A stretch of 64,000 nt of DNA from Minisyncoccia bacterium (lineage in GTDB: Bacteria; Patescibacteriota; Minisyncoccia; Phycocordibacterales; UBA9973): NCBI GenBank assembly GCA_965656375.1, contig CBFHKH010000001.1, positions 580,291-644,290 of the forward strand, given 5' to 3'. Positions 3,570 through 58,644 of the stretch are shown here, piece after piece (the stretch's first letter is position 1; each line of letters opens with the position of its first letter). The notes beneath the pieces are model-generated. The model worked only from the letters and a program-made list of their open reading frames with translations, was not told the DNA's origin and made no database searches. Position numbers and translations under genes: made by a program.

Positions 3570-3571
3570 AA

Positions 3572-5326
3572 TTACACAATCTCTTGTTGATAACACTTTT
3601 CGCAATATACGATATCACCATCTTTTGGATTAAATCCTGTTCTAAATAGTTCACTACATGGCACATCTCCATGGATATGCTGCACGGTGTTCGTGAACTG
3701 CCCTGTTTCATCTTTCTTCCCAGCACACATACAGTGATTATCGTAGAGTGATATCTTGAATCGATCTGAAATTCGACGTTCGTGTCTGCACTCACTGCAG
3801 TGTGACGGTATTGGCAGGCTCTCACTTTTTAAGAAATTAAATTCATCGGCGAGAATCCGAAACGGTCTATTACAAACGCCGCACTCTAAAATCTCTTTTG
3901 TTATATCTTCTCCTACTTCACCTATTGAATCGGGTATTTCATCAGATTTCTTTGTAACAGCATATTTTCCAGGCTCTTCGTCTATCCAACCGTAATTATT
4001 AGCCACAATTTCTTCTTTGTCTTTGAGGAAATGCTGAAACGCTAAAGAATTATTATATCCAAAAGATGCAAACTCTATAGGGAAAAATTCTCCATATCTA
4101 TATATCAAACCTCGGGAATCAGTGTACGGCAATGCATTCATGTGTTCGATAATTTTTTCTCGGAGTGCCATATATTCCTCTTTGGTATATTGCGTATTAA
4201 ATATACAATATTGCTTGTTGCGCAATCCGACACAACCAAAACAATCTTTGCAAGATTTTAAATGAGTAGAATACTCTATATTGTTGTTATTTGGCCAGCA
4301 GTCCCAGGAAAATCGCACGTTATAGACATTCTCTCCGCAGACTGAGGTCTCGTAACAGAGCTCGACATCCTGTCCCCATATAGAATAATCAAGGCAATCT
4401 TTGATTTTTGCTACTGAAGCATATTGACTATACCGCACATCCTCTCCTCCTTTGACCATGTATGATTCAGTCACATTTTTTGAATGACTGACATATGAAC
4501 CAGAAAAGTTTAGATTTTGAAGTCCTTGATGGTATTTATTTATCTGAGTTTTCCAAAAAGCTCGAGCATTAGTACGGGCTTCATTGATACCAGCTTTTGT
4601 ATCTAGGCGCATTTCGGAAAGAATCTTGAAATATTCTTCTTTGGTATATTGCTGGTTGAAGATACAGTATGAGGCTTTACGCAAATTCGTACATCCAAAA
4701 CAATCATTGCATCCGAGACAATCTCTTGAGAACCACATATTGTGACACTCCACAGACATGATTGTAAAATAGCACTTATAACAATTCTGCAGCCAGAAAC
4801 ATTCGTAACACTTCTCAGAAGAGTTTACGTGTGAATCATCAATACAATTTTTTGAAAGAAAAAAATCATTACCATACAAACAATTCTCCGAAGAGTTTGA
4901 ATTAAAGCACAGATAACAATCTTTAAGCGTAGCTGCATTTGCTGCATATGGACTATCAATCATACGCTCAACATTAAGTGCATATGCAGGGACATCTTTC
5001 TCAAGCTCGAAGAATTGACTGAAAAAATCACGAGAGAAATCAAACTCTCTTCCATACTCCATAGGATCCCAGGAATCACTGAACCATTCTTGATCCGTCA
5101 CGACTTTTCGCAGAGCGGAAGGCGGATATAAGGAGAAAATATTTTCACCTGTGAATGCACTTTTTGCCTTAAAAAGCTTTCGTTCGTTTCTAAATGCAAA
5201 TCGTCGTTCTGCTCTACAATATGAACAAAATGTTGGTGGTGGAACTTTAATCTTGTCGTAGAAAGAAAAGTCTTCGGCTTCGATACTGAAACCTTTTTTA
5301 CAATTCTGACACGTTCGAGTTTCCAT
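3572..5326 (-). CDS. cysteine-rich paralog B, unknown function
   Basis: 584 aa. Begins METRTCQNCKKGFSIEAEDFSFYDKIKVPPPTFCSYCRAERRFAFRNER and ends YCEKCYQQEIV. Internal modules end DCLGCNDCFGCTNLRKASYCIFNQQYTKEEY and SCKDCFGCVGLRNKQYCIFNTQYTKEEY. Starts 6 nt after the pyrH stop, so it is in the same transcription unit. Confidence 0.8.
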   Translation of the reverse strand: METRTCQNCKKGFSIEAEDFSFYDKIKVPPPTFCSYCRAERRFAFRNERKLFKAKSAFTGENIFSLYPPSALRKVVTDQEWFSDSWDPMEYGREFDFSRDFFSQFFELEKDVPAYALNVERMIDSPYAANAATLKDCYLCFNSNSSENCLYGNDFFLSKNCIDDSHVNSSEKCYECFWLQNCYKCYFTIMSVECHNMWFSRDCLGCNDCFGCTNLRKASYCIFNQQYTKEEYFKILSEMRLDTKAGINEARTNARAFWKTQINKYHQGLQNLNFSGSYVSHSKNVTESYMVKGGEDVRYSQYASVAKIKDCLDYSIWGQDVELCYETSVCGENVYNVRFSWDCWPNNNNIEYSTHLKSCKDCFGCVGLRNKQYCIFNTQYTKEEYMALREKIIEHMNALPYTDSRGLIYRYGEFFPIEFASFGYNNSLAFQHFLKDKEEIVANNYGWIDEEPGKYAVTKKSDEIPDSIGEVGEDITKEILECGVCNRPFRILADEFNFLKSESLPIPSHCSECRHERRISDRFKISLYDNHCMCAGKKDETGQFTNTVQHIHGDVPCSELFRTGFNPKDGDIVYCEKCYQQEIV

Positions 5327-5332
5327 ATAGGT

Positions 5333-6019
5333 TTATTGTATCACTGTTCCAACAAACTTTTTACCATTGAGGTAATTATCTAAACTTTCAAGATCGCGGC
5401 CAGCGATAAAGGATACTTCGAGCCCAAGTTCTTGTGCTTTCTGGGATGCCACAGGGTCAAATGGTGTATTCATTCCTGAGGTCCAATCTTTTGGGATAAA
5501 TGTCAGGTATTGCGACCATGAAACCTCCTCGAACTTCTGTGCATTTGGATTGGTTTTTGGATCACTATCATATACATAACTTACATTTGAAAGATTAATG
5601 ACTTTTTTCGCACTAATCTCTTCAGCGGTAAGTACAGCATCCATATCTGTCGAACATCCTGGCTTCCAGCCTGCCCCAATAATAACTTTCTGTGAAAGTG
5701 ATGACACAGCGGATGGATCTGTGATGATATCTTCCGGTGCATAGCTTCCAAAAGACATCCGAACAAGTTGGGCATTAAGATGAGTACTATAAATGCCGAT
5801 CCAATCTAAATCCTCAGTTTTTGTATCTATAGTAGCTGAGAGTGCATTTTGATATACACGACATGTTTTTCCCCCACCAACAATTATGATAAAACGCTTG
5901 CCAGTTGCTACATGTCTCAAGATGAGCTCACGAAAAGAGACGATAAATTCTGGGTCTGGTGCATCAGGAACAACCATAGAACCGCCAAGTGATATAACAA
6001 TAAACTCTTGAGTTTCCAT
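5333..6019 (-). CDS. pyrH: UMP kinase (amino-acid-kinase fold, archaeal/CPR-like short form)
   Basis: 228 aa. Carries the ISLGGS and IVGGG glycine-rich motifs of the uridylate kinase / amino-acid kinase family. Confidence 0.7.
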   Translation of the reverse strand: METQEFIVISLGGSMVVPDAPDPEFIVSFRELILRHVATGKRFIIIVGGGKTCRVYQNALSATIDTKTEDLDWIGIYSTHLNAQLVRMSFGSYAPEDIITDPSAVSSLSQKVIIGAGWKPGCSTDMDAVLTAEEISAKKVINLSNVSYVYDSDPKTNPNAQKFEEVSWSQYLTFIPKDWTSGMNTPFDPVASQKAQELGLEVSFIAGRDLESLDNYLNGKKFVGTVIQ

Positions 6020-7947: not shown

Positions 7948-8376
7948 TTATTTTACTTCCCCACCTGCTTTCTCGATCTTTGCTTTTGCAGCTTCTGATA
8001 CGGTACATCCTGTAACGGTGAGCTTGATTGTAACATCACCACTTGCAAGGATTTTTACCTTTGGCAATACTCCGCCTACTTTGCGAACGAGCTTTTTCTC
8101 AAAGAGTGTCGCAGGGCTGACTGTTGCACCAAGAGCAAATATATTAAGTGCTCCTACATTTACTGGAGAAGGCTTTGCCACATGTGAAGCAAATCGGTAT
8201 CCGCGAAGTTTCGGGATCTTTTTGATTATATCACGCATCTGAGGACGACGCTTGTTACCCGCGCGAGCTGTCTGACCTTTGCCTCCGCGACCAGATTGCT
8301 TACCACGTGTACCACCACGGCCTACTTGGCGTGCTTTCTTGTTTGGGTGTTCTCTTTTTAGTGTGTGTAATTGCAT
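7948..8376 (-). CDS. rplO: 50S ribosomal protein L15
   Basis: 142 aa, Gly/Arg/Lys-rich N-terminus typical of L15; sits between rpsE and secY. Confidence 0.9.
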   Translation of the reverse strand: MQLHTLKREHPNKKARQVGRGGTRGKQSGRGGKGQTARAGNKRRPQMRDIIKKIPKLRGYRFASHVAKPSPVNVGALNIFALGATVSPATLFEKKLVRKVGGVLPKVKILASGDVTIKLTVTGCTVSEAAKAKIEKAGGEVK

Positions 8377-8385
8377 ATAAATATA

Positions 8386-8985
8386 TTATTTAACCTCTTT
8401 ATCTTCTGCGAGTGCTTCTGTTATCACAGGAGCTACTTTCGGAAGTGTAGAATTTGCACGAAGCTGGTAGAGTGTTGCATAGGCTACGCGAGCATTGTTG
8501 AGTTTGTTCTTTGAACCTGAGTGAAGTTTTGCGGTGACATTCTTGAGTCCTGCAAGTGTAAGCATATCTCGAACAGTACTTCCTGCTACGAGACCCTTGC
8601 CTCGATTTGGCATCATTGTGAGTTTTGAGCTTGAGAATTTATCAGATACCTCATGAGGGATAGACATTTCCTTTGTAGTTTTTATCTTGAACATGTTCTT
8701 CTTTGCCTGGCGTAGTGCTTTGGCAATGGCGACTGCTGTGTCACCTCCCTTTCCTGTACCAAGACCGACTGAACCTTTTTTATCACCGATCGCAAGTGCA
8801 ACAGCAAATGTCATACGACGTCCTCCTGCAACCACACGAGTTACGCGGCGAATAGAAACCATTTTCTGATCAAATTCAGGCTTTGGACGCTCAAAGAAAG
8901 CGCGTGGCTTTCGCTCACCTCCATCGCGTCCTTTGTATGCTGGTCGATCTCCTGATGTATTTGGTTTTTTTGTTGGTGTATCCAT
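8386..8985 (-). CDS. rpsE: 30S ribosomal protein S5
   Basis: 199 aa. Basic N-terminal extension, then the S5 dsRBD and C-terminal domain (VSIRRVTRVVAGGRRM.FAVALAIGD). Only a 9-nt gap separates it from rplO, leaving no room for rpmD (L30). Confidence 0.9.
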   Translation of the reverse strand: MDTPTKKPNTSGDRPAYKGRDGGERKPRAFFERPKPEFDQKMVSIRRVTRVVAGGRRMTFAVALAIGDKKGSVGLGTGKGGDTAVAIAKALRQAKKNMFKIKTTKEMSIPHEVSDKFSSSKLTMMPNRGKGLVAGSTVRDMLTLAGLKNVTAKLHSGSKNKLNNARVAYATLYQLRANSTLPKVAPVITEALAEDKEVK

Positions 8986-8996
8986 ATATAAATTAA

Positions 8997-9338
8997 TTAA
9001 AACTCAAGTCCTGATGTGCGAGCAGAATCTGCAAGCGCTTTGATGCGACCAGTATATTTGAAACCGTTACGATCAAACACTACAGCTTTGATGCCTTTTG
9101 CACTTGCTCCCTTTGCAATTTCAGCGCCGACTGCTGTTGAACGCTCTGTCTTTGTACCCTTCTTTGCTGCAATGTCTGATGCAGAAACGAGTGTTGTACC
9201 AGTTGTATCATCGATGATCTGAGCATAGATGAATTGATTTGAGCGGAATACTGAAAGGCGTGGTCGTAGAGAAGTACCGACAACCTTGGTTCGGATTTTC
9301 TTCTTCAATCGTATTCTTTTTTCTAATTTCTTGTTCAT
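8997..9338 (-). CDS. rplR: 50S ribosomal protein L18
   Basis: Track ORF 8997-9416 overlaps rplF. The likely start is the internal Met ([16 protein letters not shown]...[19 protein letters not shown]), which matches the L18 N-terminal consensus. Confidence 0.85.
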
Positions 9339-9369
9339 AATTTTTCTAGTGGCTAAGGCTAATGCTATT

Positions 9370-9906
9370 TTATGCAGCTTTCTTACCTTGCTTGCGTCGG
9401 ATAAGTTCATCAGCATAGCGGAACCCCTTGCCTTTATATGGTTCAGGCTTTTTCATCGCACGAACTGATGCTGTGAATGCACCAACGAGCTCCTTGTCGA
9501 TACCAGTGACTGTGATGACATTCTTCTCTGCAGTAACAGTAAGGCCAACAGGAATGGCAACTTTAACAGGATGAGAAAAGCCGAGAGCAAGATTAAGCGT
9601 AGTGCCTGCGACATCTGATTTGAATCCCACACCTTCAAGTATAAGCTTTTTAGTGTAACCTTCGTTTACTCCAGTAACCATGTTTTTGACATGTGAAGCA
9701 TAGGTACCCCAGAGTGCATTCAATGTACGGTCACCTTCTTTTCCTGCTGTAAATGTGATTTCATTTCCATTGATATTGATAGCGATGTTGCCTGGGAATT
9801 CGCGAGTAAGTGTTCCCTTTGGCCCTTTTGCTGTGAACGTACTACCAGAGAGAGTGACTTCTGTACCTGTAGGAACTATAACTGTTTGTTTACCAATTCG
9901 TGACAT
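9370..9906 (-). CDS. rplF: 50S ribosomal protein L6
   Basis: The ORF contains the [18 protein letters not shown]6 N-terminal signature; the start is placed at that internal Met. Confidence 0.9.
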
Positions 9907-9910
9907 ATAA

Positions 9911-10297
9911 TTACCAAAGCTTAAAGAGCACTTCACCGCCGACCATTTCCTTGCGGGCTTGCTTGTCAGTTAAAATTCCTTTTGGTGTTGTAAGAACTGT
10001 AAGACCATATCCATTGCGAGTTGGCTTGATTTCCTTTACTCCTTTGTATACACGACGTGATGATTTTGAAACACGTTCTACTCCTGTAACACGAGGCTTG
10101 CCATCTTTGTATGCAAGGCCAAGTTCAAGTGTTGGAAATCCTTTCTTTGTCTTCTTTGCAACGGAAGAGAGAAAGCCTTCACGTGCAAGACATTCTGCGA
10201 TAGATTCTTTGATCTTTGAATACGGAACAGTAACGAACTCGTGCTCAGCACGATTTCCTACTTTTATCATATTTACCATGTTTGCGATTTGATCCAT
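9911..10297 (-). CDS. rpsH: 30S ribosomal protein S8
   Basis: S8 signature MDQIANMVNMIKVGNRAEHEF. The start is placed at the internal Met; the track ORF 9911-10357 has an implausible N-terminal extension. Confidence 0.9.
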   Translation of the reverse strand: MDQIANMVNMIKVGNRAEHEFVTVPYSKIKESIAECLAREGFLSSVAKKTKKGFPTLELGLAYKDGKPRVTGVERVSKSSRRVYKGVKEIKPTRNGYGLTVLTTPKGILTDKQARKEMVGGEVLFKLW

Positions 10298-10310
10298 ATA
10301 GTGTGTGATA

Positions 10311-10496
10311 TTACCAAGATGACTTGCGAACGCCTGGGAGCATGCCTTCATTTGCAAGCTCGCGGAAGCAGATACGGCAGAGACCGAAATCCCTCATATA
10401 TGCATGGCCTCGGCCACAGCGAAAACAACGATTTGTTTCTCGTGTGCTAAATTTTGACTTTTTGCGATGTCGAGCTAATACTGATGTTTTTGCCAT
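10311..10496 (-). CDS. rpsZ: 30S ribosomal protein S14 type Z (zinc-binding)
   Basis: 61-aa product [61 protein letters not shown] with the C-x2-C-x12-C-x2-C zinc motif. The track ORF extends into the leader. Confidence 0.9.
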
Positions 10497-10508
10497 ATAT
10501 AAATAAAA

Positions 10509-10521
10509 GGGGTATATCCCC
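10509..10521 (-). promoter_or_regulatory. leader hairpin (ggggtatatcccc) about 12 nt upstream of the rpsZ start codon
   Basis: Perfect 4-bp GC stem with an AT-rich loop abutting the presumed ribosome-binding region of rpsZ, in a ~100-nt leader downstream of the predicted rpsZ promoter. Coordinates approximate. Confidence 0.35.
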
Positions 10522-10612
10522 GGTGGATCGTGATATCTCGTTCTTTTTCTCAAAAATCCTTAAACCTATTGATTCTTAAGGAGAAGCACGGATCTACGAC
10601 TCACGTTCCCCT

Positions 10613-10641
10613 ATACTAGCAGATCGGAGTATCTGTGTCAA
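10613..10641 (-). promoter_or_regulatory. sigma70-like promoter for rpsZ-rpsH-rplF...
   Basis: On the minus strand: TTGACA, 17-nt spacer, TGCTAGTAT (TG-extended -10). It lies immediately downstream of the terminator hairpin of the inserted gene 10694-11077. Confidence 0.5.
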
Positions 10642-10645
10642 CAAT

Positions 10646-10671
10646 AAAGGCCATCATAAGAGATGGCCTTT
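10646..10671 (-). terminator. intrinsic terminator hairpin after gene 10694-11077
   Basis: aaaggccatcataagagatggccttt, an 8-bp GC-rich stem flanked by A/T runs. Confidence 0.55.
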
Positions 10672-10693
10672 AAAATAAACGATTGTATGTCAA

Positions 10694-11077
10694 TTAAATA
10701 CTTATTTCTTTTACCCCTTCTGTTAGAGGTTGAGGTACGTTTTCACGTTCTTGCATATACTTAATAATCAGAAGATTATTTTTTTCAACTTCGTTTTTTC
10801 GTTGATCTTCTCTCTTTATAAGCCGCTTTCTCATGAAGAATAAGGATTCCGTCTGGGCATCAGGGATAAAAAATCTGGATCGGATTGCCGTTTCTACTGA
10901 ATCGAGTGTAGTTTTATTTATTATTCCTTCCCTTTCTTTTACCATGAGGTCAGTGCATAGAGAATCAATCATCTTTGAAATAACGGCTGATCGTATTTTA
11001 TATACTTGCCCAACTGTTTGAGCAGTAGCATTAAAAAATACAGTGATAAGTGCAAAGAATAAGATTACTTTTTTCAT
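10694..11077 (-). CDS. small exported protein (signal peptide), unknown function
   Basis: 127 aa. N-terminal MKKVILFFALITVFFNATAQ signal-peptide-like segment. Inserted between rplE and rpsZ, where canonical spc operons have no gene. Confidence 0.55.
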   Translation of the reverse strand: MKKVILFFALITVFFNATAQTVGQVYKIRSAVISKMIDSLCTDLMVKEREGIINKTTLDSVETAIRSRFFIPDAQTESLFFMRKRLIKREDQRKNEVEKNNLLIIKYMQERENVPQPLTEGVKEISI

Positions 11078-11230
11078 AAACAGTTATTTTGATTAGAAAA
11101 TTAGGTGGATCCTATCAGGGAATATTCCCGGAGAAAATCCGCCCAACTTTCTCGCAAAATAACCTATGTAGAAGAACAGTAGTCTGTTACTTTTATAGTA
11201 AGACAGATCTAAAAGGAAGTCAATGGTTAT

Positions 11231-11653
11231 TTATTTACACCTAACTCCAGATGTATACCCTTCTTCATCAAGAGCTGTGGTATAGAAACCTGTGCCATCA
11301 GCACAATAGTATTTATTGGTAGCAGTTTTAATACGTGCGGTGAATGTGTGGACTTTTGCTATGCATTCAACTGGATTATCGATGATTTTATGAAGCGTAT
11401 CGAACTTTGATTGAAGACTCGTGCAAATATTATTCGACTTCGAAACGAAGTAATTGTTGTGATCGTAGAAGAATTTTTTTGCTTGGGATTGGAGTTGTGT
11501 AGAAACAGCATCTTTGACAACAGTCTCTGCAGAATCATAATCCTTATCTTTGACGGATTTCTGAAAAGCAGGGTTCTCATCAAGCTTGAAATACTTATAC
11601 CCGATAAAGAGAAGTATCAAAACGCCAATAATAAAAGCGACAGTTTTGTTCAT
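11231..11653 (-). CDS. membrane-anchored protein (N-terminal TM), unknown function
   Basis: 140 aa. MNKTVAFIIGVLILLFIGYKYF N-terminal anchor, then a Cys-containing soluble domain. Second gene of the insertion between rplE and rpsZ. Confidence 0.55.
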   Translation of the reverse strand: MNKTVAFIIGVLILLFIGYKYFKLDENPAFQKSVKDKDYDSAETVVKDAVSTQLQSQAKKFFYDHNNYFVSKSNNICTSLQSKFDTLHKIIDNPVECIAKVHTFTARIKTATNKYYCADGTGFYTTALDEEGYTSGVRCK

Positions 11654-11682
11654 GTTTTAATTATACCCTGTCTTAATAAATT

Positions 11683-11707
11683 AAAAAGCCCCTTCATGGG
11701 GCTTTTT
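11683..11707 (-). terminator. intrinsic terminator immediately after rplE
   Basis: aaaaagcccc ttcat ggggcttttt; GC stem with a T-run on the minus strand. It is bidirectional in form. Confidence 0.6.
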
Positions 11708-11713
11708 AATTCT

Positions 11714-12253
11714 TTATTTCTTGAATGGGATACCGATGAGTTCAAAGAATTCAGTTGCTTCAGCTTTCGTCTTTGCAGTAGTAACAATTGTAACTGCGAG
11801 GCCGAAAATGTCTTTGATATCTTCATCGCCTGTTTCTGGGAAGATCGTGTGTTCTTTGATGCTCATCGTGAGGTTACCGATGTCATCTACAATCTTGCGT
11901 TCAATTCCACGGAAGTCCTTTGTACGTGGGATAGCAACATTGATGAGTTTATCGAGGAATCCATACATACGTGCACCACGAAGTGTAACCATTACGCCGA
12001 TCGGGTCACCCTGACGCATTTTGAATGATGCGATAGATTTCTTTGCACCGCGAACAGCAGGCTTTTGACCTGTCATTTTTGCAAGGCGCTCCATGACGAA
12101 TTTATTGCGATCTTTATCCTTTTTGATTCCAGATCCTGTACCGACAGCAACAACAACTTTCACCAAGTGAGGCGCAGCCATAGAGCTCTTGTAGCCGTAT
12201 GTACCCTTGAGAGTACTGAATGCTTTCTTTTCTTTTTGTTTGACTGTTTCCAT
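11714..12253 (-). CDS. rplE: 50S ribosomal protein L5
   Basis: 179 aa, strong L5 similarity (AAPHLVKVVV..GTG; RGARMYGFLDKLINVAIPR). Confidence 0.92.
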   Translation of the reverse strand: METVKQKEKKAFSTLKGTYGYKSSMAAPHLVKVVVAVGTGSGIKKDKDRNKFVMERLAKMTGQKPAVRGAKKSIASFKMRQGDPIGVMVTLRGARMYGFLDKLINVAIPRTKDFRGIERKIVDDIGNLTMSIKEHTIFPETGDEDIKDIFGLAVTIVTTAKTKAEATEFFELIGIPFKK

Positions 12254-12271
12254 AATATAAATATGTGCTTA

Positions 12272-12490
12272 TTACTTCTCCAACGCTACGTTTGATACGT
12301 TGATTGGCATTGCGATCTCGAGTATCTGACTCTGGTCTCCGCGCTTCTGTGACTTGTGAGATTTCTTTCTCATGTTTACGCCTTCAACGATCACCTTATT
12401 CTCGGATGGGATTGCTTTTACCACTGTGCCCTTCTTTCCTTTATTTGCACCTGCGATAACTCTTACTTTGTCTCCTTTCTTGATTTTCAT
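12272..12490 (-). CDS. rplX: 50S ribosomal protein L24
   Basis: 72 aa. KOW motif MKIKKGDKVRVIAGANKGKKGTV. Confidence 0.9.
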   Translation of the reverse strand: MKIKKGDKVRVIAGANKGKKGTVVKAIPSENKVIVEGVNMRKKSHKSQKRGDQSQILEIAMPINVSNVALEK

Positions 12491-12502
12491 ATATAAAAAT
12501 AA

Positions 12503-12874
12503 TTAAATAACTTCTTGAGCTAAGGAGATAATCTTCTGGTATCCGCGCTCTGCGAGCTCACGTGGAATCGGTCCGAATACGCGACCACCCTTCGGATCCT
12601 GCTTGTCTTTTTCAAGGATTACAACAGCATTGTCGTCAAAGCGAATGTATGAGCCATCCTTTCGGCGATATGCTTTTACTGTACGAACAACAACAGCCTG
12701 GCAAACATCCTTTTTCTTTACACCCTTGCGAGGTTCTGCAATCTTTACTGAGATGATGACTTTATCGCCAATACCAGCATAGCGGCGCTTTGATGAGCCG
12801 AGTACTTTGAAGACCTTGCCAACTTTACCGCCGGCATTGTCTGTGATATTTACTACTGTTCCGTCTTGTATCAT
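12503..12874 (-). CDS. rplN: 50S ribosomal protein L14
   Basis: 123 aa. MIQDGTVVNITDNAGGK...AVVVRT L14 signature. Confidence 0.92.
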   Translation of the reverse strand: MIQDGTVVNITDNAGGKVGKVFKVLGSSKRRYAGIGDKVIISVKIAEPRKGVKKKDVCQAVVVRTVKAYRRKDGSYIRFDDNAVVILEKDKQDPKGGRVFGPIPRELAERGYQKIISLAQEVI

Positions 12875-14677: not shown

Positions 14678-15022
14678 TTATTTCTTCTTTGTATCGGTCG
14701 AGGCTTTAGCGGACTTTGCTGCGGATATTTCGGCTTCTTTCTTCTTCTGCTCTAATTCCTTCTGCATCTTACCTCCGTGTCGGACGAACTTGCGGGTCGG
14801 GGAGAATTCACCGAGTCTATGACCTACCATGTCTTCACTGACCAGGACTTCCACGTGTGTTTTACCATTGTGGACTCCGAACACGAATCCTACCATTTCT
14901 GGAGAGATAACGCATGCTCGTGACCAGGTCTTTATCATACCTGTCTCGATCGGCTTTTTACCGGCAATCTTCTTAAGAAGCCGTTCGTCGACGTATGGAC
15001 CTTTTTTGAGTGATCGTGTCAT
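14678..15022 (-). CDS. rpsS: 30S ribosomal protein S19
   Basis: 114 aa. [16 protein letters not shown]...GHRLGEF S19 signature with a basic C-terminal extension. Confidence 0.92.
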
Positions 15023-15063
15023 GTGATTACAATATAAATAAGCTCGTGTGAGCTCGTCCGTCT

Positions 15064-15091
15064 ATACTAGCAAATATAGAAATAATGTCAA
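15064..15091 (-). promoter_or_regulatory. sigma70-like promoter for rpsS-rplV-..., created downstream of the pyr island
   Basis: Minus strand: TTGACA, 16-nt spacer, TGCTAGTAT. The extended -10 block is the same as at the rpsZ promoter. Confidence 0.5.
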
Positions 15092-15200
15092 ATTATTGAT
15101 GACAGGGCATCTGAGATGCAATCTTATTTGACAAACACTCCAAGAAAGGTAGGATTACTAGAAATTCACTATATTTTGTAAACACTTAAAAGTATAAATT

Positions 15201-16127
15201 ATGAACTTCTTTGAAAAAGACCAGCTGCCCATCGGTAACGGTGGTGGCACATGCAAAACGATTAAGGATGTTGAAAAACTTCTGGCAACCGCCATCTCTG
15301 TTATAGAAATTGGTACTATAACATTCGAGGCAAGGCTCGGGAATGAGGGAAATGTTCAACATGATGGAATAACCTATACTCTTAATTCATTGGGTATGCC
15401 TAATCCTGGAATAAAGTACTACAGGGAGAATCTACCTAAGATGATAGAGATGATTCATGAAAAAGGGAAAAAGGTAATAGTTAATATTGCCGGATTCTCA
15501 GGAAATGAATGGATAGAACTATCCCGATTAGCTGTTATAAGTGGCGCTGATTTTACACTTTTGAATTACGGTTGCCCAAATATTTGGGTTAGGGGTAGCC
15601 AAAAAACTATTTTAAGCTATGATTATGGTTTAAAAAAATTTGATGAGATTACCCGGATTGTCATAATCAACAACCAGGAATATGCAAAGCAAGGCAGAAT
15701 TGGAATAAAACTTTCACCTATAATTGACCCCGTGCATATGAGCACTGTAGCAAATCTGATTAATAGATTTTCTACTCTTGGGTATGGTCATATTGGATTT
15801 GTAACAAGCCAGAATACTGTTCCCAATTGTTACGATGAAGATACTACTGGTAAATCTTTCGTCGACCCTGCAGGCGGATTGGCAGGTATGGGCGGCAACG
15901 CCATACTTCCAATGGCGTTAGGCCAGGTACGACAACTAAGAGCATTGCTCAAGCCAAATATAAAGATCATCGGCGTTGGGGGCGTAGATTCAGGCGAAGG
16001 TGTAATAAAAATGCTACACGTAGGAGCGGATTTTGTGCAGATAACATCAGCATATTATTTTAAAGAAGATCCTGGTGTATTTAACTACATAGGGGCAGAA
16101 TACATTGAGCTAAAGGCTTTTTCGTAA
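15201..16127 (+). CDS. pyrD: dihydroorotate dehydrogenase, class 1 (Cys active site)
   Basis: 308 aa TIM barrel. NYGCPN (class-1 N-x-S/G-C-P-N active-site motif) and C-terminal IGVGGVDSGEGVIKMLHVGADFVQITSA FMN-binding motif. No pyrK is adjacent, which suggests class 1A. Confidence 0.8.
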   Translation: MNFFEKDQLPIGNGGGTCKTIKDVEKLLATAISVIEIGTITFEARLGNEGNVQHDGITYTLNSLGMPNPGIKYYRENLPKMIEMIHEKGKKVIVNIAGFSGNEWIELSRLAVISGADFTLLNYGCPNIWVRGSQKTILSYDYGLKKFDEITRIVIINNQEYAKQGRIGIKLSPIIDPVHMSTVANLINRFSTLGYGHIGFVTSQNTVPNCYDEDTTGKSFVDPAGGLAGMGGNAILPMALGQVRQLRALLKPNIKIIGVGGVDSGEGVIKMLHVGADFVQITSAYYFKEDPGVFNYIGAEYIELKAFS

Positions 16128-16146
16128 ATAAACAGGTTAATAATAG

Positions 16147-16181
16147 AATTCCTCCCGTCTTTGACTGGAGGAATTTTTGTT
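16147..16181 (+). terminator. intrinsic terminator after pyrD
   Basis: aattcctcc cgtctttgact ggaggaatt followed by ttttgtttg. Confidence 0.6.
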
Positions 16182-16261
16182 TGCATTTTAAGCTTGAAAA
16201 GCATAGGATAAGTAAAATTTGGCTTTTGGGATATCCCATTTAAACTTTAAAAATAAATATT

Positions 16262-17608
16262 ATGAAAGCAACGCTTATTCGGAATGTACAAGTTGTGTTT
16301 GGGGATGCTCCGGCACGAAGGGCTGATGTGTTGATAGTCGGCTCATATATCGCAAAGATCGCTGATCCGAATTCAATAAACGTACCGAACATACACGTCA
16401 TTGATGGAAAAAATTTGTATTTATTCCCCGGAGTGATTGATGATCAGGTACACTTTCGTGAGCCTGGACTTACCCATAAAGCTGAAATTCAAACAGAAGC
16501 GAAGGCGGCTGTTGCCGGTGGAGTAACCAGCTTTATGGAAATGCCAAATACAGTTCCGAACGCTGTTACCATCGAATTATTAGAGGAAAAATACACCCGA
16601 GCTTCACAATGCTCGCTTGCAAATTATTCTTTTTATATGGGAACGACGAACGATAACTTGGAAGAGTTATTAAAGGTTGATCCTAAAAATGTGTGCGGTA
16701 TAAAGATCTTTATGGGAAGCAGTACAGGCAATATGCTGGTAGATAACCAGGAAGTTTTAGAGAAGATTTTCTCTAGCGTAAAAATGCTGATCGCCACGCA
16801 TTGCGAAGATGATTCGATGATACAAGAGAATTTGGAAAGGGAAAAAGCAGAACGTACCGAAGAAAGTTTTACAGCAGAGCTTCATCCTATCATTCGTGAT
16901 GACAAAGCATGCTACAGTTCATCTTCTTTTGCCGTAGAGTTAGCAAAAAAGTATGGGACAAGGCTTCATGTGCTCCATATTAGCTCTGGGATAGAAACAA
17001 AATTATTCCAGAGTGATATTCCATTGGAAGAAAAAAAGATAACTGCGGAAGCATGCGTGCACCACCTTTATTTCTCAAGTAAGGATTATGCGGAAAAAGG
17101 TAACTTTATAAAATGGAACCCTGCAATCAAATTACCAAAGGATCGTACAGCTGTTTGGAATGCTGTACTCAACGGTTGGATTGATGTTATTGCGACAGAT
17201 CATGCTCCTCACACTGAGGAAGAAAAACGGCTTCCCTATTTACAAGCTCCATCCGGTGGACCATTGGTGCAACACGGATTAAACGCGATGCTTGAATTTG
17301 CATTTGAAGGAAAAATCAGCAAGCAGAAGATCGTACAGATGATGTGCAATAATCCAGCTACGTTATTTCAGATTGAAAAAAGGGGTTTTATCCGGGAAGG
17401 ATACTATGCTGATCTTGTACTGGTTGATATGAATACTGAGTATACGGTCAGTAAAGAAAACATCTTTTATAAGTGCGGCTGGAGTCCCTTTGAAGGTAAG
17501 ACATTTCATTCTGTAATTACGCATACTTTTGTAAATGGTAATCTAGTTTATCATGATGGAAAATTCAATCCCCACATCATGGGAAAGAGATTAACATTCA
17601 ACAGATAG
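16262..17608 (+). CDS. pyrC: dihydroorotase (cyclic amidohydrolase family)
   Basis: 448 aa. DDQVHFREPG (HxH metal-site region) and ATDHAPH motifs of the dihydroorotase / allantoinase amidohydrolases. Confidence 0.8.
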   Translation: MKATLIRNVQVVFGDAPARRADVLIVGSYIAKIADPNSINVPNIHVIDGKNLYLFPGVIDDQVHFREPGLTHKAEIQTEAKAAVAGGVTSFMEMPNTVPNAVTIELLEEKYTRASQCSLANYSFYMGTTNDNLEELLKVDPKNVCGIKIFMGSSTGNMLVDNQEVLEKIFSSVKMLIATHCEDDSMIQENLEREKAERTEESFTAELHPIIRDDKACYSSSSFAVELAKKYGTRLHVLHISSGIETKLFQSDIPLEEKKITAEACVHHLYFSSKDYAEKGNFIKWNPAIKLPKDRTAVWNAVLNGWIDVIATDHAPHTEEEKRLPYLQAPSGGPLVQHGLNAMLEFAFEGKISKQKIVQMMCNNPATLFQIEKRGFIREGYYADLVLVDMNTEYTVSKENIFYKCGWSPFEGKTFHSVITHTFVNGNLVYHDGKFNPHIMGKRLTFNR

Positions 17609-17632
17609 AACCTATGTGCAATTAATTTATAT

Positions 17633-17662
17633 ATTCCTGCTCAATTTGAGCAGGAATTTTTT
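17633..17662 (+). terminator. intrinsic terminator after pyrC
   Basis: ttcctgctc aatttg gagcaggaa + tttttt. The stem sequence is related to the pyrD terminator (aattcct..aggaattttt). Confidence 0.6.
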
Positions 17663-17742
17663 ATTTGACAAAAAATAGGATTACGGTAGGATGAGGAAAA
17701 ATTCTAATCTAACAATTTTGATAACACGTAAACCAAACGATT

Positions 17743-18810
17743 ATGAACAGTTATTTGAAAAGTCTCGCCCGTATACTTGGGCGTACAATGCTTCTTATAA
17801 AAGCAACGACGTACAGAAGTGAACCTTACAAATGGGCTTCCGGCATGTTGATGCATATCTACAATGACAACAGAATGATGTTGGGAGTCTACAGCCACCG
17901 CTGGCGCATAGCAGCAGGCTTTGCTGAACTGATAAAAGGTCACAAAGTCTCACCCACATACATACTGGGTACCAGCACTGCTGGTATTGCTCCCGCAACT
18001 TCTGTAGCCCAATATATGAAAAAGAAAATGTTGATAAATGAAGGAGGAAAATTCTACCTTTATGAAGAAGGTTTGCTGAAATCTGAAACTTTCAAGTATC
18101 AGTGGTTCAAAGAATTTTCTACTATCAAGCCAGGGGACAGAAGTAGGTATGCTATTGTAACAACATCACCGCTCGCCATACCATATGGCGTCCAGTATGC
18201 CAATGAATTTAAAGTTGGATTTGCGTATGTACGCAAAAATGCAAAAGACCACGGTAAAGAATTACAGGTTGAAGGAAATTTAAAACGTGGAACAAAAGTT
18301 GTACTGATGTTCACTGGAACATCAGAAGACGATGTTACCACTGCACACAATACCACTGTAAAAACATTAGAAGATATGGGATGTATTGTGTTGAGTGTAT
18401 ATGGGATTGATCTTTTAAATGGATCACGACACAAGGAAGCAACTTTGGAAGATTTGCGGAATAAGAAAACTGCTGTAATAGAAGATCTGTTTTCTACCGG
18501 CGGAAGTGCAGCATATGAAGTGTTCCAACTTCGCCAGGCAGGTGCAATTTGCAATTATTGCTTTTCCATTTTCAGTTATGATTTTGATGTATTGAAGAAG
18601 CAATTTTCCGGTGAGTCAGAAATTGGCACCAAGAGGGTGTGGCTTTCAATGTCATGTATAACTGATACCTTATTACCATTTTCTATCCTTTGTGAGGAAA
18701 TGGAAAAATTAGGATTCTTCTCAGAAGAGATTAGGATATCAATGAAGGAGGAGATTGAGAATTTTGATCTGAATTATCAAAAATTCCTCCAAACTAATGG
18801 AGCCTCTTAA
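17743..18810 (+). CDS. pyrE: orotate phosphoribosyltransferase, unusually long (355 aa) with an inserted segment and an extra C-terminal PRPP-binding-like motif
   Basis: The N-terminal ~230 aa align by eye with E. coli PyrE (SG..SPY..N; G.AYKGIPIAT region; RK.AKDHG motif; VVLMFTGTSEDDVTT PRPP loop). An insertion of ~55 aa lies after the first half. The C-terminal ~110 aa carry a second, better-conserved PRPP motif, AVIEDLFSTGGSAAY. Confidence 0.7.
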   Translation: MNSYLKSLARILGRTMLLIKATTYRSEPYKWASGMLMHIYNDNRMMLGVYSHRWRIAAGFAELIKGHKVSPTYILGTSTAGIAPATSVAQYMKKKMLINEGGKFYLYEEGLLKSETFKYQWFKEFSTIKPGDRSRYAIVTTSPLAIPYGVQYANEFKVGFAYVRKNAKDHGKELQVEGNLKRGTKVVLMFTGTSEDDVTTAHNTTVKTLEDMGCIVLSVYGIDLLNGSRHKEATLEDLRNKKTAVIEDLFSTGGSAAYEVFQLRQAGAICNYCFSIFSYDFDVLKKQFSGESEIGTKRVWLSMSCITDTLLPFSILCEEMEKLGFFSEEIRISMKEEIENFDLNYQKFLQTNGAS

Positions 18811-18828
18811 GGCTAAGAATAAATAGTA

Positions 18829-18860
18829 AAAAACCGGGATGGTAAAATCCCGGTTTTTTT
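18829..18860. terminator. bidirectional terminator between convergent pyrE and pyrF
   Basis: accgggat ggtaaa atcccggt with an A-run upstream and a T-run downstream. Confidence 0.65.
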
Positions 18861-18883
18861 ATTTAAGATAAAACAACGTTACA

Positions 18884-19822
18884 TTAATTCATACAGTTCT
18901 TAGCAAGGGGCTGCACAGCTAAGACCATTTTTTCATAGTTTTCTTTTGCTTTCTGTTCAGCAGCTTGAGCAAAATCTTCACCTTTACTTGCAAAAATTAT
19001 CTCAGAGCCGTTATTTATAGCCATACTCCCCCAGCCGGCAAACCCACCAGCTATAGTTTCAGCAATAGCACCACCTTGTGTACCTACGGCTGGCACCAAA
19101 AACCAAAGCTTATCGCCGACAATATTACGACACTGCACCAAATGATCATTGTGTATATTCCCAGAACCTTTCGGGTTCTCGTATGCTGCAGCCATAACCA
19201 GGCCTGCATCTTCAACAATTTTCAATTCTTCGGCCCAGGCTAAAGTGCGCTTCGCAATAAATTGCCAATATGGTTCACCAGTAGCAAGTAATGGGTCCTG
19301 AACTTCACGGGCATCTGGATTGCTTGTGTAGCACAATCCTACAATTGCTCTTCTCGGATAGTCTGCATTTATCAATGCCTTCATACAGCTTTTGCCCATA
19401 TACGGAGAAAAATTCATACCCTCAGCACCATCTTTTTCGAAATGGGCGATCTGGTACATTTCCTGCGTGGCATCGATATCACCACGTTTGCAATCCAGAA
19501 AAACGGGAATATCAGGATAATTCTTTTTAATATAGTCAATAACCATTTTCAACGCATACTGCCCGTATTTTCCCAAAGCTTCGTAGTGTGCTTTCTGCAG
19601 TTTGAACATACAGGCATACTTTGCTGTAGCATCAACTATTTTAATCATCCAGTTGGCAACGTCTTTTGCTAGTTGTAATCCATCATCAGACTTTTTCAAA
19701 ATAGTTTTCAGATGTACCGGCATATTTGCTACTTTCGGATCTAACCCTACACAAAGCAGGGAGAGTGTTTTGCGCTGTCTTATAGTAAGACGATAGCGAA
19801 AAGAATCAGTAATGTTGGTCAT
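18884..19822 (-). CDS. pyrF: orotidine 5'-phosphate decarboxylase, type 2 (long form)
   Basis: 312 aa. LCVGLDP N-terminal motif and FLDCKRGDI (D-x-K-x-x-D) catalytic motif of type-2 OMP decarboxylases. Confidence 0.8.
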   Translation of the reverse strand: MTNITDSFRYRLTIRQRKTLSLLCVGLDPKVANMPVHLKTILKKSDDGLQLAKDVANWMIKIVDATAKYACMFKLQKAHYEALGKYGQYALKMVIDYIKKNYPDIPVFLDCKRGDIDATQEMYQIAHFEKDGAEGMNFSPYMGKSCMKALINADYPRRAIVGLCYTSNPDAREVQDPLLATGEPYWQFIAKRTLAWAEELKIVEDAGLVMAAAYENPKGSGNIHNDHLVQCRNIVGDKLWFLVPAVGTQGGAIAETIAGGFAGWGSMAINNGSEIIFASKGEDFAQAAEQKAKENYEKMVLAVQPLAKNCMN

Positions 19823-19951
19823 AAATTGTTTTTTAAGTTGGTTTACATTATTGTTTGATTTGAAAGCCTAAATGGCACTCAAATCAAACAACAAAAACCA
19901 TCACAATTTGGTGTGATTCTACAGTAAGTATTTATATTAGTCAAATAAAAA

Positions 19952-20341
19952 TTAAAGGAGGGAAATTATCTTCGGTAAGAATATAAGAATACCAACTATA
20001 CCAGCGATTATAACTGCAACAGAGACTGCTCCAGCAGCGACGTCTTTTGTATCGCGAGCATACGGATGGTATGTAGGGGATGTAAGATCGATATCTATCT
20101 CTATCGCTGTATTTATCATTTCAAAAAGAATTACAAGACCAATAACGAGAATAATAAAAATCCATTCAGTGTTTGATATATGTAATACAAAGCCCAAATA
20201 TATGGCAAGTACTCCAAAGAAAAGATGCATCCATGCATTGTGAGTAGTTCGGAGAAAGATAGTAATCCCCCGGAATGCATGAGTTGTACTCTTGATCCGA
20301 GCAACAATTGAAAATCGTTTCTTTTCTGGCATTTCTTCCAT
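19952..20341 (-). CDS. dgkA: diacylglycerol/undecaprenol kinase family protein (DgkA-like), three TM helices
   Basis: The start is placed at the internal Met (MEEMPEKKRF...), since the track ORF 19952-20551 overlaps rplB. Motifs AFRGITIFLRTTHNAWMH and EMINTAIEIDIDL match the prokaryotic DAGK family. Confidence 0.65.
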   Translation of the reverse strand: MEEMPEKKRFSIVARIKSTTHAFRGITIFLRTTHNAWMHLFFGVLAIYLGFVLHISNTEWIFIILVIGLVILFEMINTAIEIDIDLTSPTYHPYARDTKDVAAGAVSVAVIIAGIVGILIFLPKIISLL

Positions 20342-20405
20342 ATAACTAGTATACAACAAAAAATACCCCCAGGGGGTATTTTTTGTTGATAGAGAGTATT
20401 TGATG

Positions 20406-21251
20406 CTATTTCTTTGACTTTCCAACCTTTCGGCGAGAAACGATCCACATGTTTGAGTACTTCTTTGGGGTACGAGTCTTCTGGCCTTTTCCAGACGGCT
20501 TACCCCAGAGAGTCTTCGCGCGGCGGAGACCTCGTCCTTGTGCACCTTCACCTCCTCCGTATGGGTGGTCTACTGGGTTCATGGCAGATCCACGAACTGT
20601 TGGGCGGATACCCTTCCAGCGTGAACGCCCTGCTTTACCAAAGTTTTGTAATTTAAATTCAGAGTTTGAAACTTCACCGATACATGCGTAGCAGTTTTCA
20701 GAAACCTTGCGGACTTCTGTTGATGGCATCTTGATGTTGGTGTATCCGAGGTCGTTCGCCACTACCTGACCGAATGTTCCTGCACTTCGTGCAAGCTTTG
20801 CGCCATTGCCTGGCTTGATTTCAATGTTGTATACAAATGTTCCAACAGGAATGAATTTGAGTGGAAGACGATTCGCAGTTGTGAGAGGAACTTTCTCACC
20901 GACGATAAATTTGTCGCCTACTTTGACTGACTTTGGAACTACCACATAACGCTTCTCGCCGTCAGCATATACGGAAAGACCGATGAATGCATTACGATTT
21001 GGATCGTATTCAATCGATGTGATCTTTGCAGGAATATCGCGCTTGTCATACATGAAGTCGATGTCGCGGTAGAGACGCTTGTGTCCGCCACCTTTATGAC
21101 GAGTTGTGATTCGTCCTTGGTTGTTGCGTCCGACAGAGCGCTTGAATCCTTTGGTCAAAGATTTTGTAGGCTTTGTTTTGGTCAAAACATTACGGTATGA
21201 AACCGTTGTCTGGTGACGCTTTGATGGTGTTGTTGGTTTATACGTTTTCAT
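20406..21251 (-). CDS. rplB: 50S ribosomal protein L2
   Basis: 281 aa. L2 signature including GGGHKR.YR and the C-terminal HPYGGGEG. Confidence 0.95.
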   Translation of the reverse strand: MKTYKPTTPSKRHQTTVSYRNVLTKTKPTKSLTKGFKRSVGRNNQGRITTRHKGGGHKRLYRDIDFMYDKRDIPAKITSIEYDPNRNAFIGLSVYADGEKRYVVVPKSVKVGDKFIVGEKVPLTTANRLPLKFIPVGTFVYNIEIKPGNGAKLARSAGTFGQVVANDLGYTNIKMPSTEVRKVSENCYACIGEVSNSEFKLQNFGKAGRSRWKGIRPTVRGSAMNPVDHPYGGGEGAQGRGLRRAKTLWGKPSGKGQKTRTPKKYSNMWIVSRRKVGKSKK

Positions 21252-45423: not shown

Positions 45424-45441
45424 CTTAAAAAAACAAAACCA

Positions 45442-58642: not shown

Positions 58643-58644
58643 TT

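Follow-up and report, generated by a model that had tools for sequence, protein, structure and literature searches.

A conserved split of the S10 ribosomal-protein cluster in Candidatus Nomurabacteria holds dgkA and, in most lineages, a cassette of pyrimidine genes

Few loci of prokaryotes are as conserved in gene order as the ribosomal-protein superoperon, whose S10 cluster canonically runs rpsJ-rplC-rplD-rplW-rplB-rpsS-rplV-rpsC-rplP-rpmC-rpsQ. The window analyzed here, a 64-kb stretch of DNA (64,000 nucleotides of contig CBFHKH010000001.1), carries the ribosomal genes in the same order and orientation on either side of a gap, and differs from the canonical operon by a cut after rplB, which is conserved in the Nomurabacteria lineages examined, and by the absence of rpmC. 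According to the list of open reading frames (ORFs), rpsS and rplB are spaced 5,383 bp apart and the interval is filled by pyrD, pyrC, pyrE, pyrF, and dgkA (Table 1). The contiguous layout, with rplB directly before rpsS in one transcription unit, is thus replaced by this gap, a terminator and a separate rpsS promoter. The identity of each gene, the interruption of the S10 cluster and the presence of separate terminators and promoters had been proposed before from the letters of the sequence (in the following called the original prediction), and were borne out by ORFs, hidden Markov models, folding and a consensus scan; all promoter and terminator calls rest on consensus, folding and conservation. 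The product of rplB is a member of a 90%-identity cluster with Candidatus Nomurabacteria L2 proteins, the Pfam match to Ribosomal_S19 was obtained on a gene (locus L001) identical to the window rpsS, and the proteins encoded in the gap were singletons in the protein clustering. As judged by sequence, the source lineage is Candidatus Nomurabacteria (Parcubacteria, candidate phyla radiation, CPR), with a small genome of 840 kb.

Table 1. Genes and predicted transcription signals from rpsS to rplB (positions are those of the window).
Feature	Positions	Strand	Evidence and remarks
rpsS (S19)	14678..15022	-	ORF; 90-97% identity to sister S19; opens the downstream part of the interrupted S10 cluster
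rpsS-leader hairpin (GAGCTCacacGAGCTT), then ATTTATATTG	15040..15055	-	invariant in 7/7 aligned lineages; flagged terminator-like
rpsS promoter, TTGACA, 16 nt, TAGTAT, TG before the -10 box	15064..15091	-	consensus scan 10/12; conserved in 7/7 lineages
pyrD promoter, TTGACA, 16 nt, TAGGAT	15128..15155	+	consensus scan; both hexamers kept in sisters
pyrD, class-1A-like dihydroorotate dehydrogenase, form A	15201..16127	+	Pfam DHO_dh 6e-33
pyrD terminator, outer stem ATTCCT/AGGAAT	16146..16177	+	-18.8 kcal/mol, z -3.9
pyrC, Bacteroidota-type dihydroorotase	16262..17608	+	NF006688 674 bits, cutoff 535
pyrC terminator, outer stem same as in pyrD terminator	17633..17657	+	-17.6 kcal/mol, z -5.1
pyrE promoter, TTGACA, 16 nt, TAGGAT	17665..17692	+	consensus scan; orthologous copy in L004
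pyrE, long-form orotate phosphoribosyltransferase, 355 amino acids	17743..18810	+	below Pfam/NCBIfam cutoffs; assigned by profile, structure and motifs
bidirectional terminator of convergent pyrE/pyrF	18828..18859	both	-20.6 and -19.4 kcal/mol
pyrF, type-2 orotidine 5'-monophosphate decarboxylase	18884..19822	-	TIGR02127 150 bits, cutoff 110.6
long hairpin in pyrF 5' leader	19848..19894	-	-32 kcal/mol, z -6.0; 21-bp arms; inverted repeat
pyrF promoter, TTGACT, 17 nt, TAGAAT	19916..19944	-	consensus scan
dgkA, DAGK_prokar family lipid kinase, 129 amino acids	19952..20341	-	Pfam 4e-32
-10-like box TATACT/TATAAT, 6 nt before dgkA ATG in the window	20348..20353	-	7-lineage alignment
intrinsic terminator directly after rplB	20354..20388	-	17-bp perfect inverted repeat, -22.1 kcal/mol, z -6.3
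rplB (L2)	20406..21251	-	ORF; closes the upstream part of the interrupted S10 cluster

Nine lineages including the window were compared at this locus; the identity comparison of dgkA covers eight of them (L103 was left out), and the alignments of transcription signals cover seven, among them the L098 lineage without pyr genes at the site. Between rplB and rpsS, dgkA was found in every one of the nine lineages, also in the two that have no pyr genes there. This is at variance with the original prediction, which counted dgkA as part of an inserted island: dgkA is the fixed element of the gap, and the pyr cassette is a second layer. The start of dgkA was set to the ATG at 20341 and not to the ORF that overlaps rplB, because the sister proteins are 129-131 amino acids (aa) long and because of the Pfam coverage.

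The terminator directly after rplB, which the original prediction did not contain, is found in 7/7 lineages. Its flanks, AACAAAA on the one side and TTTTGTTG on the other, are kept, and the stem cores differ from lineage to lineage and yet pair (TACCCCC/GGGGGTA, GCGCCC/GGGCGC, GCACTC/GAGTGC, TTCCC/GGGAA, and others), with folding energies of -17 to -25 kcal/mol and z-scores of -5.5 to -7.4. The stems were compared by folds of each single sequence; MAFFT placed the hairpins in different registers. Right after this terminator, TTTTGTTGTATAMTA (20342-20353, minus strand) is invariant in 7/7 lineages, with the -10-like box a few nucleotides before the ATG of dgkA, and the dgkA transcript may be leaderless or carry a very short leader. 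On the other side of the gap, the rpsS promoter and leader, the latter consisting of a 16-nt hairpin (GAGCTCnnnnGAGCTT) followed by ATTTATATTG (15040-15063), are essentially invariant in all seven lineages. This includes L098, where dgkA abuts rpsS. Since both the rplB terminator and the rpsS promoter and leader are present in this pyr-free lineage, they exist independently of the cassette, and the idea that rpsS gained its promoter through a pyr insertion does not hold. The leader hairpin shows no covariation because its sequence never varies; it resembles an attenuator or a ribosomal-protein autoregulatory site (putative), with no match in Rfam. In the arrangement proposed here, the S10 cluster would be permanently cut after rplB by the terminator, followed by dgkA and then by the promoter and leader which would restart transcription at rpsS.

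In addition to dgkA, 7/9 lineages (the window and six other Nomurabacteria) contain pyr genes in the rplB-rpsS gap, so that in most lineages the dgkA-rpsS interval also houses a pyrimidine cassette facing away from rpsS. L004 is organized as the window, with an additional ORF of the DUF2061 family. L101 reads pyrD> pyrC> pyrE> pyrF> <dgkA (> plus strand, < minus strand), and L102 is the same except that the pyrE slot is taken by an unrelated 237-aa protein. The other cassettes are smaller, with pyrE> pyrF> <dgkA in L096, pyrE> <pyrF <dgkA in L095 (whose contig ends before rpsS) and a 162-aa ORF> pyrE> <pyrF (380 aa) <dgkA in L002. Without pyr genes, the gap reads rplB> dgkA> rpsS in L098-L100 and rplB> 65-aa ORF> dgkA> rpsS in L103-L105. 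The 237-aa protein of L102 (9451-10164) was considered as a candidate orotate phosphoribosyltransferase (OPRTase) and rejected, with an hhalign probability of 0.4% against the profile of the long OPRTases; it has no Pfam or NCBIfam match. The 162-aa ORF of L002 (2398-2886) sits at the position that pyrD and pyrC occupy in the window and gave no significant family match. The same insertion in sister genomes, together with a vertical phylogeny, had been named in advance as the observation to decide against a recent horizontal transfer; the comparison placed pyr genes in the same gap in six other lineages, and pyrC and pyrE look vertically inherited.

Outside of the S10 gap, an organism of the L098 type carries convergent pyrE> <pyrF between recR and rplU (L005), and a search of metagenome contigs with the long OPRTase, which yielded seven loci, found a locus (L088) resembling this one. 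In L106, a locus from a different Paceibacterota genome, pyrD, pyrF and a canonical 201-aa pyrE (8722-12541) are located where the spc cluster is interrupted, preceded by an FKBP gene and two small ORFs, with no pyrC in this group. Pyr genes thus adjoin a breakpoint of a ribosomal cluster in a second instance.

The genes of the cassette do not share one history. With many Bacteroidota dihydroorotases, for example that of Bacteroidetes bacterium UKL13-3 (encoded on a 3.2-Mb contig), the window PyrC shares 64-68% identity, and with sequences assigned to CPR a similar 66-71%. Eleven pyrC copies were assigned to CPR by size (448-453 aa) and by their grouping in the tree, the assignment being confirmed by gene context for three of them (window, L101 and L102). 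In a tree rooted on the Porphyromonas gingivalis enzyme (PDB 2gwn), these eleven copies are monophyletic (82% bootstrap) and nested among Bacteroidota-like sequences (79%). Monophyly and nesting together indicate a single old transfer from Bacteroidota to the Nomurabacteria clade, by which pyrC would have entered once, long ago, from a Bacteroidota-like donor. For pyrD the closest relatives are those of the sister lineages (50-59% identity), followed by proteins of Liptonbacteria, Paceibacterota, Wildermuthbacteria, Kerfeldbacteria, and Levybacteria (37-46%). Since its nearest relatives are CPR proteins, the window pyrD is a CPR-type gene, and as this type is widespread in CPR, the view that pyr genes are foreign to CPR in general could not be maintained.

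Within the clade, pyrD occurs in two forms which can barely or not at all be aligned by BLAST, form A in the window and L101 (51% identical to each other) and form B in L004 and L102 (61%); L101 and L102 are sister genomes and yet carry different forms. The situation is similar for pyrF, of which at least five lineages occupy the one site: that of the window and L005 (53% identity), that of L101 and L102 (58%), that of L004, that of L002 (380 aa), and a type-1 form in L095 and L096 (35%), the identity between groups being 23-31% or undetectable. The window pyrF itself is 53% identical to that of Nomurabacteria GW2011_GWF2_35_66 (L005) and 24-31% or undetectably similar to those of the other sisters. 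On the basis of these comparisons, pyrD and pyrF appear to have been exchanged, each at its place, for unrelated versions in sister lineages. Because each gene has its own terminator and pyrD, pyrE, and pyrF have separate promoters, such swaps of single genes would be easier. The cassette would be modular and still be inherited vertically within the clade, with the convergent pyrE/pyrF pair as a common core.

Among the lineages, identities are 83-95% for rplB, 57-80% for dgkA (eight of nine), 59-72% for pyrC and 46-64% for the long pyrE. Flanking enzymes of the window show a divergence from L096 which is comparable to that of the cassette genes (pyrH 54%, adk 68%, map 71%, secY 81%). In a neighbor-joining tree of ribosomal proteins and tuf (1,353 columns), L098 and L103 group together (100%) and are joined by L096 (88%) against the rest, and the closest pyrE pair, L096 and L005 with 59% identity, agrees with this tree. 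In a more distant CPR relative, the long pyrE stands by itself in the neighborhood of ftsH and smpB; this is a weak argument for the S10 site as the derived state of the pyr genes.

These comparisons bear directly on the original prediction, according to which the 5.4-kb block, dgkA included, is a recent horizontal island that forced a new promoter upon rpsS. In favor of it, pyrC is clearly of the Bacteroidota type, and CTG, CCG, and CGG together make up 2.3% of the codons of the pyr genes, compared with 1.5% in the other non-ribosomal genes (p=0.03) and 0.5% in the ribosomal protein genes. Rare codons are about 1.5-2.3x commoner in the pyr genes than in other non-ribosomal genes, and the codon adaptation index (CAI) of the pyr genes, calculated with ribosomal proteins as reference, is 0.526-0.557 and ranks 4th to 7th lowest of 36 (native non-ribosomal genes 0.477-0.725, median 0.608). 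The difference in codon choice from the flanking ribosomal genes, which had been noticed by eye, is hence real but mild, and it fits low expression. The tetranucleotide comparison, suggested for the same purpose, did not set the block apart, as 4.6-kb segments over the island have distances with z-scores of +0.7 to +0.95, which lie in the range of variation of the window itself, at a GC content of 0.39. Neither mobility genes such as an integrase nor a tRNA or flanking direct repeats were found in 14900-20500, and no nearly identical donor came up, the best identity outside CPR being about 67% and that for pyrC only. The nearest relatives of pyrD, pyrE, and pyrF lie in CPR. The same site is occupied in six other lineages by proteins only 46-72% identical to those of the window, dgkA is there in 9/9 lineages, and the rplB terminator and rpsS promoter are there in 7/7, pyr-free L098 among them. 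A recent island is therefore very unlikely and largely refuted. What remains of the proposed foreign origin is the part that concerns pyrC; for the block as a recent acquisition it fails, given the site shared by sisters, the vertical appearance of pyrC and pyrE and the host-like composition.

An artefact of assembly or binning, for example a Bacteroidota fragment chimerically joined into a CPR contig, would also explain a PyrC that is 64-68% identical to Bacteroidota proteins. However, an independent Logan assembly (ERR15116721) gives the same junctions and proteins, six lineages from unrelated samples share the junctions, the identity of PyrC to any Bacteroidota protein is no higher than about 67%, and the GC content at third codon positions as well as the tetranucleotide composition are host-like. 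As the independent assemblies agree, a chimera was rejected, and we give this explanation practically no weight.

We consider it probable that the locus represents a lineage-conserved re-partitioning of the S10 cluster which hosts a modular, mostly vertically inherited pyr cassette with replacements in place. Several points weigh against this. The CAI of the pyr genes is below that of the other genes (Mann-Whitney p about 0.015), which may be due to low expression or to remnants of a foreign signature. In the unrooted tree, the two pyr-free lineages fall into a single clan, so that one gain or one relocation explains the distribution and the cassette was possibly ancestral and moved out once. 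All trees are neighbor-joining trees on identity-based distances and not maximum-likelihood trees. Most of the matches labeled Bacteroidota for pyrC are nameless, and the label rests on the named ones and on large contigs. Finally, PyrE and PyrD score under the equivalog cutoffs of NCBIfam.

The assignment of the single enzymes was nevertheless possible at the level of families and motifs. The window PyrD matches the Pfam family DHO_dh with 114.7 bits (cutoff 27), which assigns it to the dihydroorotate dehydrogenase step; its top NCBIfam model is that of class 1A (PRK02506), with 148 bits at a cutoff of 301. The closest structure in the PDB is DHODA of Lactococcus lactis (1jqx, E 3e-30), the motif NSLGMPN is present, and the Cys of its LNYGCPN aligns with the catalytic-base Cys of the L. 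lactis enzyme. No pyrK-like ORF was found in the ORF list of the island, leaving PyrD without a PyrK partner there. With a Cys as catalytic base and no PyrK subunit, PyrD has the features of class 1A dihydroorotate dehydrogenases. It is similar to the fumarate-dependent class 1A enzyme of L. lactis in the catalytic Cys, the motifs for flavin mononucleotide and orotate and the missing PyrK gene, and differs from it in scoring below the class-1A equivalog cutoff and in belonging to a CPR-wide subgroup. For PyrC, the comparison with the P. gingivalis dihydroorotase (2gwn) gave an E-value of 4.5e-143 with 54% identity and an identical metal-site motif, DDQVHFREPG. PyrC shares this motif with the Bacteroidota dihydroorotases (2gwn, NF006688) and scores above their equivalog cutoff; it differs from them in being encoded by CPR, whose copies form a clade of their own with 448-453 aa compared with 445-446 aa. 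The DCKRGDI motif of PyrF was aligned to the orotidine 5'-monophosphate (OMP) decarboxylase of Leishmania. DgkA covers the full length of PF01219 with 110.4 bits (cutoff 22.3), a membership that concerns the family only, with diacylglycerol or undecaprenol as candidate substrates.

In contrast to these, the window PyrE stays below the curated cutoffs, with 72 bits against 106.8 for TIGR00336 and 17.9 against 26.3 for PF00156. In an alignment of 25 members of its family, the catalytic loop YVRKxxKDHG (YVRKNAKDHG in the window) and the phosphoribosyl pyrophosphate (PRPP) motif VIEDLFSTGGS are invariant or nearly so, and R164, K168, H170, G171, E247, D248, S251, G253, and S255 are invariant in all of them. 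The profile of this family matches the OPRTase of Streptococcus mutans (3dez) with an E-value of 8e-52. An AlphaFold2 model of the long PyrE (pLDDT 94) retrieved OPRTases only at ranks 1-32 of a Foldseek search against the PDB (best E 6e-11, first exception at rank 33), with TM-scores of 0.77-0.85 over the target in comparisons with OPRTase structures. This confirms that the long PyrE of the window is an OPRTase of the type-I phosphoribosyltransferase fold. The motif EDLxSTGGS on its own is generic; a profile scan of genome contigs returned ordinary OPRTases of Firmicutes and Spirochaetes, with no Nomurabacteria locus among the matches listed.

The long OPRTases comprise 314-380 aa, and all relatives that were found belong to CPR or to DPANN archaea (Woese-, Pace- and Nanoarchaeota). 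Compared with canonical OPRTases (Streptococcus 2aee and 3dez, Bacillus 4rv4), they have the same fold, catalytic loop and PRPP motif and differ by about 130-150 extra residues. Residues 112-126 of 3dez are matched twice by the profile, at 83-97 and 139-153, and residues 148-155 likewise at 175-182 and 226-233, a pattern that suggests a partial duplication of the beta-alpha-beta core within the protein. An hhalign comparison between sub-alignments of the family yielded the expected register with weak scores (E 0.003 and 0.012). A literature search returned nothing on the long OPRTase or on a pyr cassette in the rplB-rpsS gap. To our knowledge, the CPR/DPANN long OPRTase has not been described or characterized so far, and it represents a target for biochemistry. 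All enzymes of the cassette are of known kinds; what is new is the arrangement, the pattern of replacement and the enlarged OPRTase.

With respect to transcription, the three terminators which the original prediction had placed behind pyrD, pyrC, and pyrE all fold well (z -3.9 to -5.1). Its observation that two of them share one stem was likewise substantiated, since the outer stem ATTCCT...AGGAATTTT of the pyrD and pyrC terminators occurs at exactly two sites in 64 kb compared with 0.01 expected; as it is absent from the sister loci, this shared stem is species-specific. The promoter-leader regions of pyrD and pyrE (15124-15206 and 17661-17748) are direct repeats of each other, with 73-74% identity over about 85 nt through the ATGAAC start. 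L004 carries a matching pair of pyrD and pyrE promoters, and the pyr promoters are conserved between it and the window. The twin promoter-leaders together with the twin terminator stems suggest that regulatory parts may have been copied locally when the cassette was extended. Upstream of pyrC, only a weak match (TTGCAT, 17 nt, TAGGAT) was read directly from the sequence. The convergent layout of pyrE and pyrF is also found in Nomurabacteria L005; the hairpin in the pyrF leader of the window is not followed by a U-run and has no counterpart upstream of the orthologous pyrF of L005. No Rfam family matched in the island, and the window as a whole yielded four tRNAs only, all of them elsewhere, and no leader, attenuator or riboswitch. 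As far as transcription can be inferred from these signals, each pyr gene would form a transcription unit of its own.

The pyr operon of Gram-positive bacteria, pyrR-pyrP-pyrB-pyrC-carAB-pyrK-pyrD-pyrF-pyrE, is an attenuated polycistron. It shares with the cassette of the window the clustering of pyr genes that end at UMP. In contrast to it, the island has no pyrB, carAB, pyrK or pyrR and no PyrR-binding attenuator (no Rfam match), and its pyrD, pyrE, and pyrF each have a consensus-like promoter and a terminator, pyrC having a terminator and a weak promoter.

In the chemistry proposed for the cassette, PyrC would convert N-carbamoyl-aspartate to dihydroorotate, PyrD would oxidize this to orotate, the long PyrE would form OMP and PyrF would release UMP; we infer these activities as well as the origin of the first substrate. 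As had been stated originally, only the half of the pathway from carbamoyl-aspartate to UMP is visible in the window, with no pyrB or carAB among its listed ORFs of at least 70 aa (these were read by eye and a minority was run against Pfam). The long pyrE and pyrF, which lead from orotate to UMP, form a module in all cassette-bearing lineages except L102. At the site, L096, L095, and L002 carry the pair of pyrE and pyrF, with pyrD and pyrC absent; this fits orotate salvage as the core function, and the step from orotate to UMP would be the sole route in several sisters.

On the question of where the first substrate comes from, scavenging of a host intermediate and a pyrB/carAB set elsewhere in the genome are about evenly balanced in our judgment, the sisters with only pyrE and pyrF making scavenging more plausible. 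That the island is the distal part of a complete de novo pathway, with pyrB and either carAB or a carbamate kinase encoded in another part of the 840-kb genome, has in its favor that dihydroorotate dehydrogenase is widespread in CPR, that pyrC is of no obvious use without carbamoyl-aspartate, and that a near-complete de novo pyrimidine pathway is on record for one other Parcubacterium (PMC5220378). The ORFs of the window, within the limits of the reading by eye given above (most were not run against a family library), include neither pyrB nor carAB, and the three lineages with only pyrE and pyrF at the site speak against a complete pathway. Another Paceibacterota genome has pyrD, pyrF, and pyrE and no pyrC, which results in graded entry points as expected if intermediates are imported. 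Moreover, salvage is used in any case: since the window encodes a uracil phosphoribosyltransferase, the organism also uses direct salvage of uracil to UMP. Weighing these points, we regard a complete pathway as quite possible, at slightly less than an even chance. The uracil phosphoribosyltransferase (PF14681, 2.5e-55) lies beside a phosphoribosyltransferase of PF00156 (2e-15) at 44824-46089, and an AA_kinase-family protein, likely UMP kinase, is encoded next to adk at 5333-6019.

The dihydroorotase and dihydroorotate dehydrogenase reactions are both reversible, and pyrD and pyrC might therefore act catabolically from orotate to carbamoyl-aspartate, as in orotate-fermenting clostridia. This would suit CPR bacteria in so far as they are fermenters (PMC5220378). 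Yet pyrD and pyrC are always accompanied by pyrE and pyrF, which pull orotate towards UMP, the ORF list of the window contains no ureidosuccinase or carbamate kinase nearby, and the minimal conserved module of pyrE and pyrF is anabolic, so that we regard a catabolic direction as highly improbable.

Among related genomes, the gene sets form a graded series of pyrE and pyrF, of pyrD, pyrF, and pyrE, and of pyrD, pyrC, pyrE, and pyrF. This series suggests the import of pyrimidine intermediates and a pathway which can be extended by one cassette at a time, and provides a testable view of uptake from the host by CPR bacteria. In its most far-reaching version, the conserved split would provide in the dgkA-rpsS gap a fixed site at which UMP salvage was built backwards, from pyrE and pyrF to pyrD and then to the Bacteroidota pyrC, with later swaps for unrelated versions. 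The respective genomes would lack pyrB and carAB and live on orotate, dihydroorotate or carbamoyl-aspartate of the host, and the OPRTase would be an undescribed, enlarged CPR/DPANN form with an internal partial duplication, exchanged between the two radiations. As a whole, this scenario is tentative and we hold it to be rather doubtful. With regard to the split itself, a stable, lineage-wide interruption of the superoperon would serve as a synapomorphy-like marker for a Nomurabacteria clade, and an interruption with its own terminator, restart promoter and metabolic genes implies that even the superoperon can be re-partitioned in reduced genomes.

Further peculiarities of the window concern other parts of the ribosomal genes and their surroundings. 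No rpmC (uL29) is present between rplP and rpsQ, with no ORF between the end of rplP (13144) and the start of rpsQ (13138), and no uL30 gene is present between rpsE and rplO (7948-8985); in both cases the sister loci are alike. For CPR, uL29 is on record as lost in particular lineages and uL30 as lost universally (PMC9297842). Five paralogues of about 565-585 aa (1884-5326, 40345-42042 and 56912-60330) share the N-terminal motif CxxC...FY.K..VP.PT.CP.CR and match no Pfam family beyond weak treble-clef zinc-finger matches at both ends of one copy. In the spc cluster, rplE and rpsN/rpsH are separated by two small ORFs (127 and 140 aa; 10694-11653), which have hydrophobic N-termini and gave no match in Pfam. 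The same spot contains a 155-aa ORF in loci of the L004 type, an 83-aa ORF in L101, and a 124-aa ORF together with a Cu-oxidase_4 protein in L098, so that the ribosomal superoperon has a second site of variable insertions.

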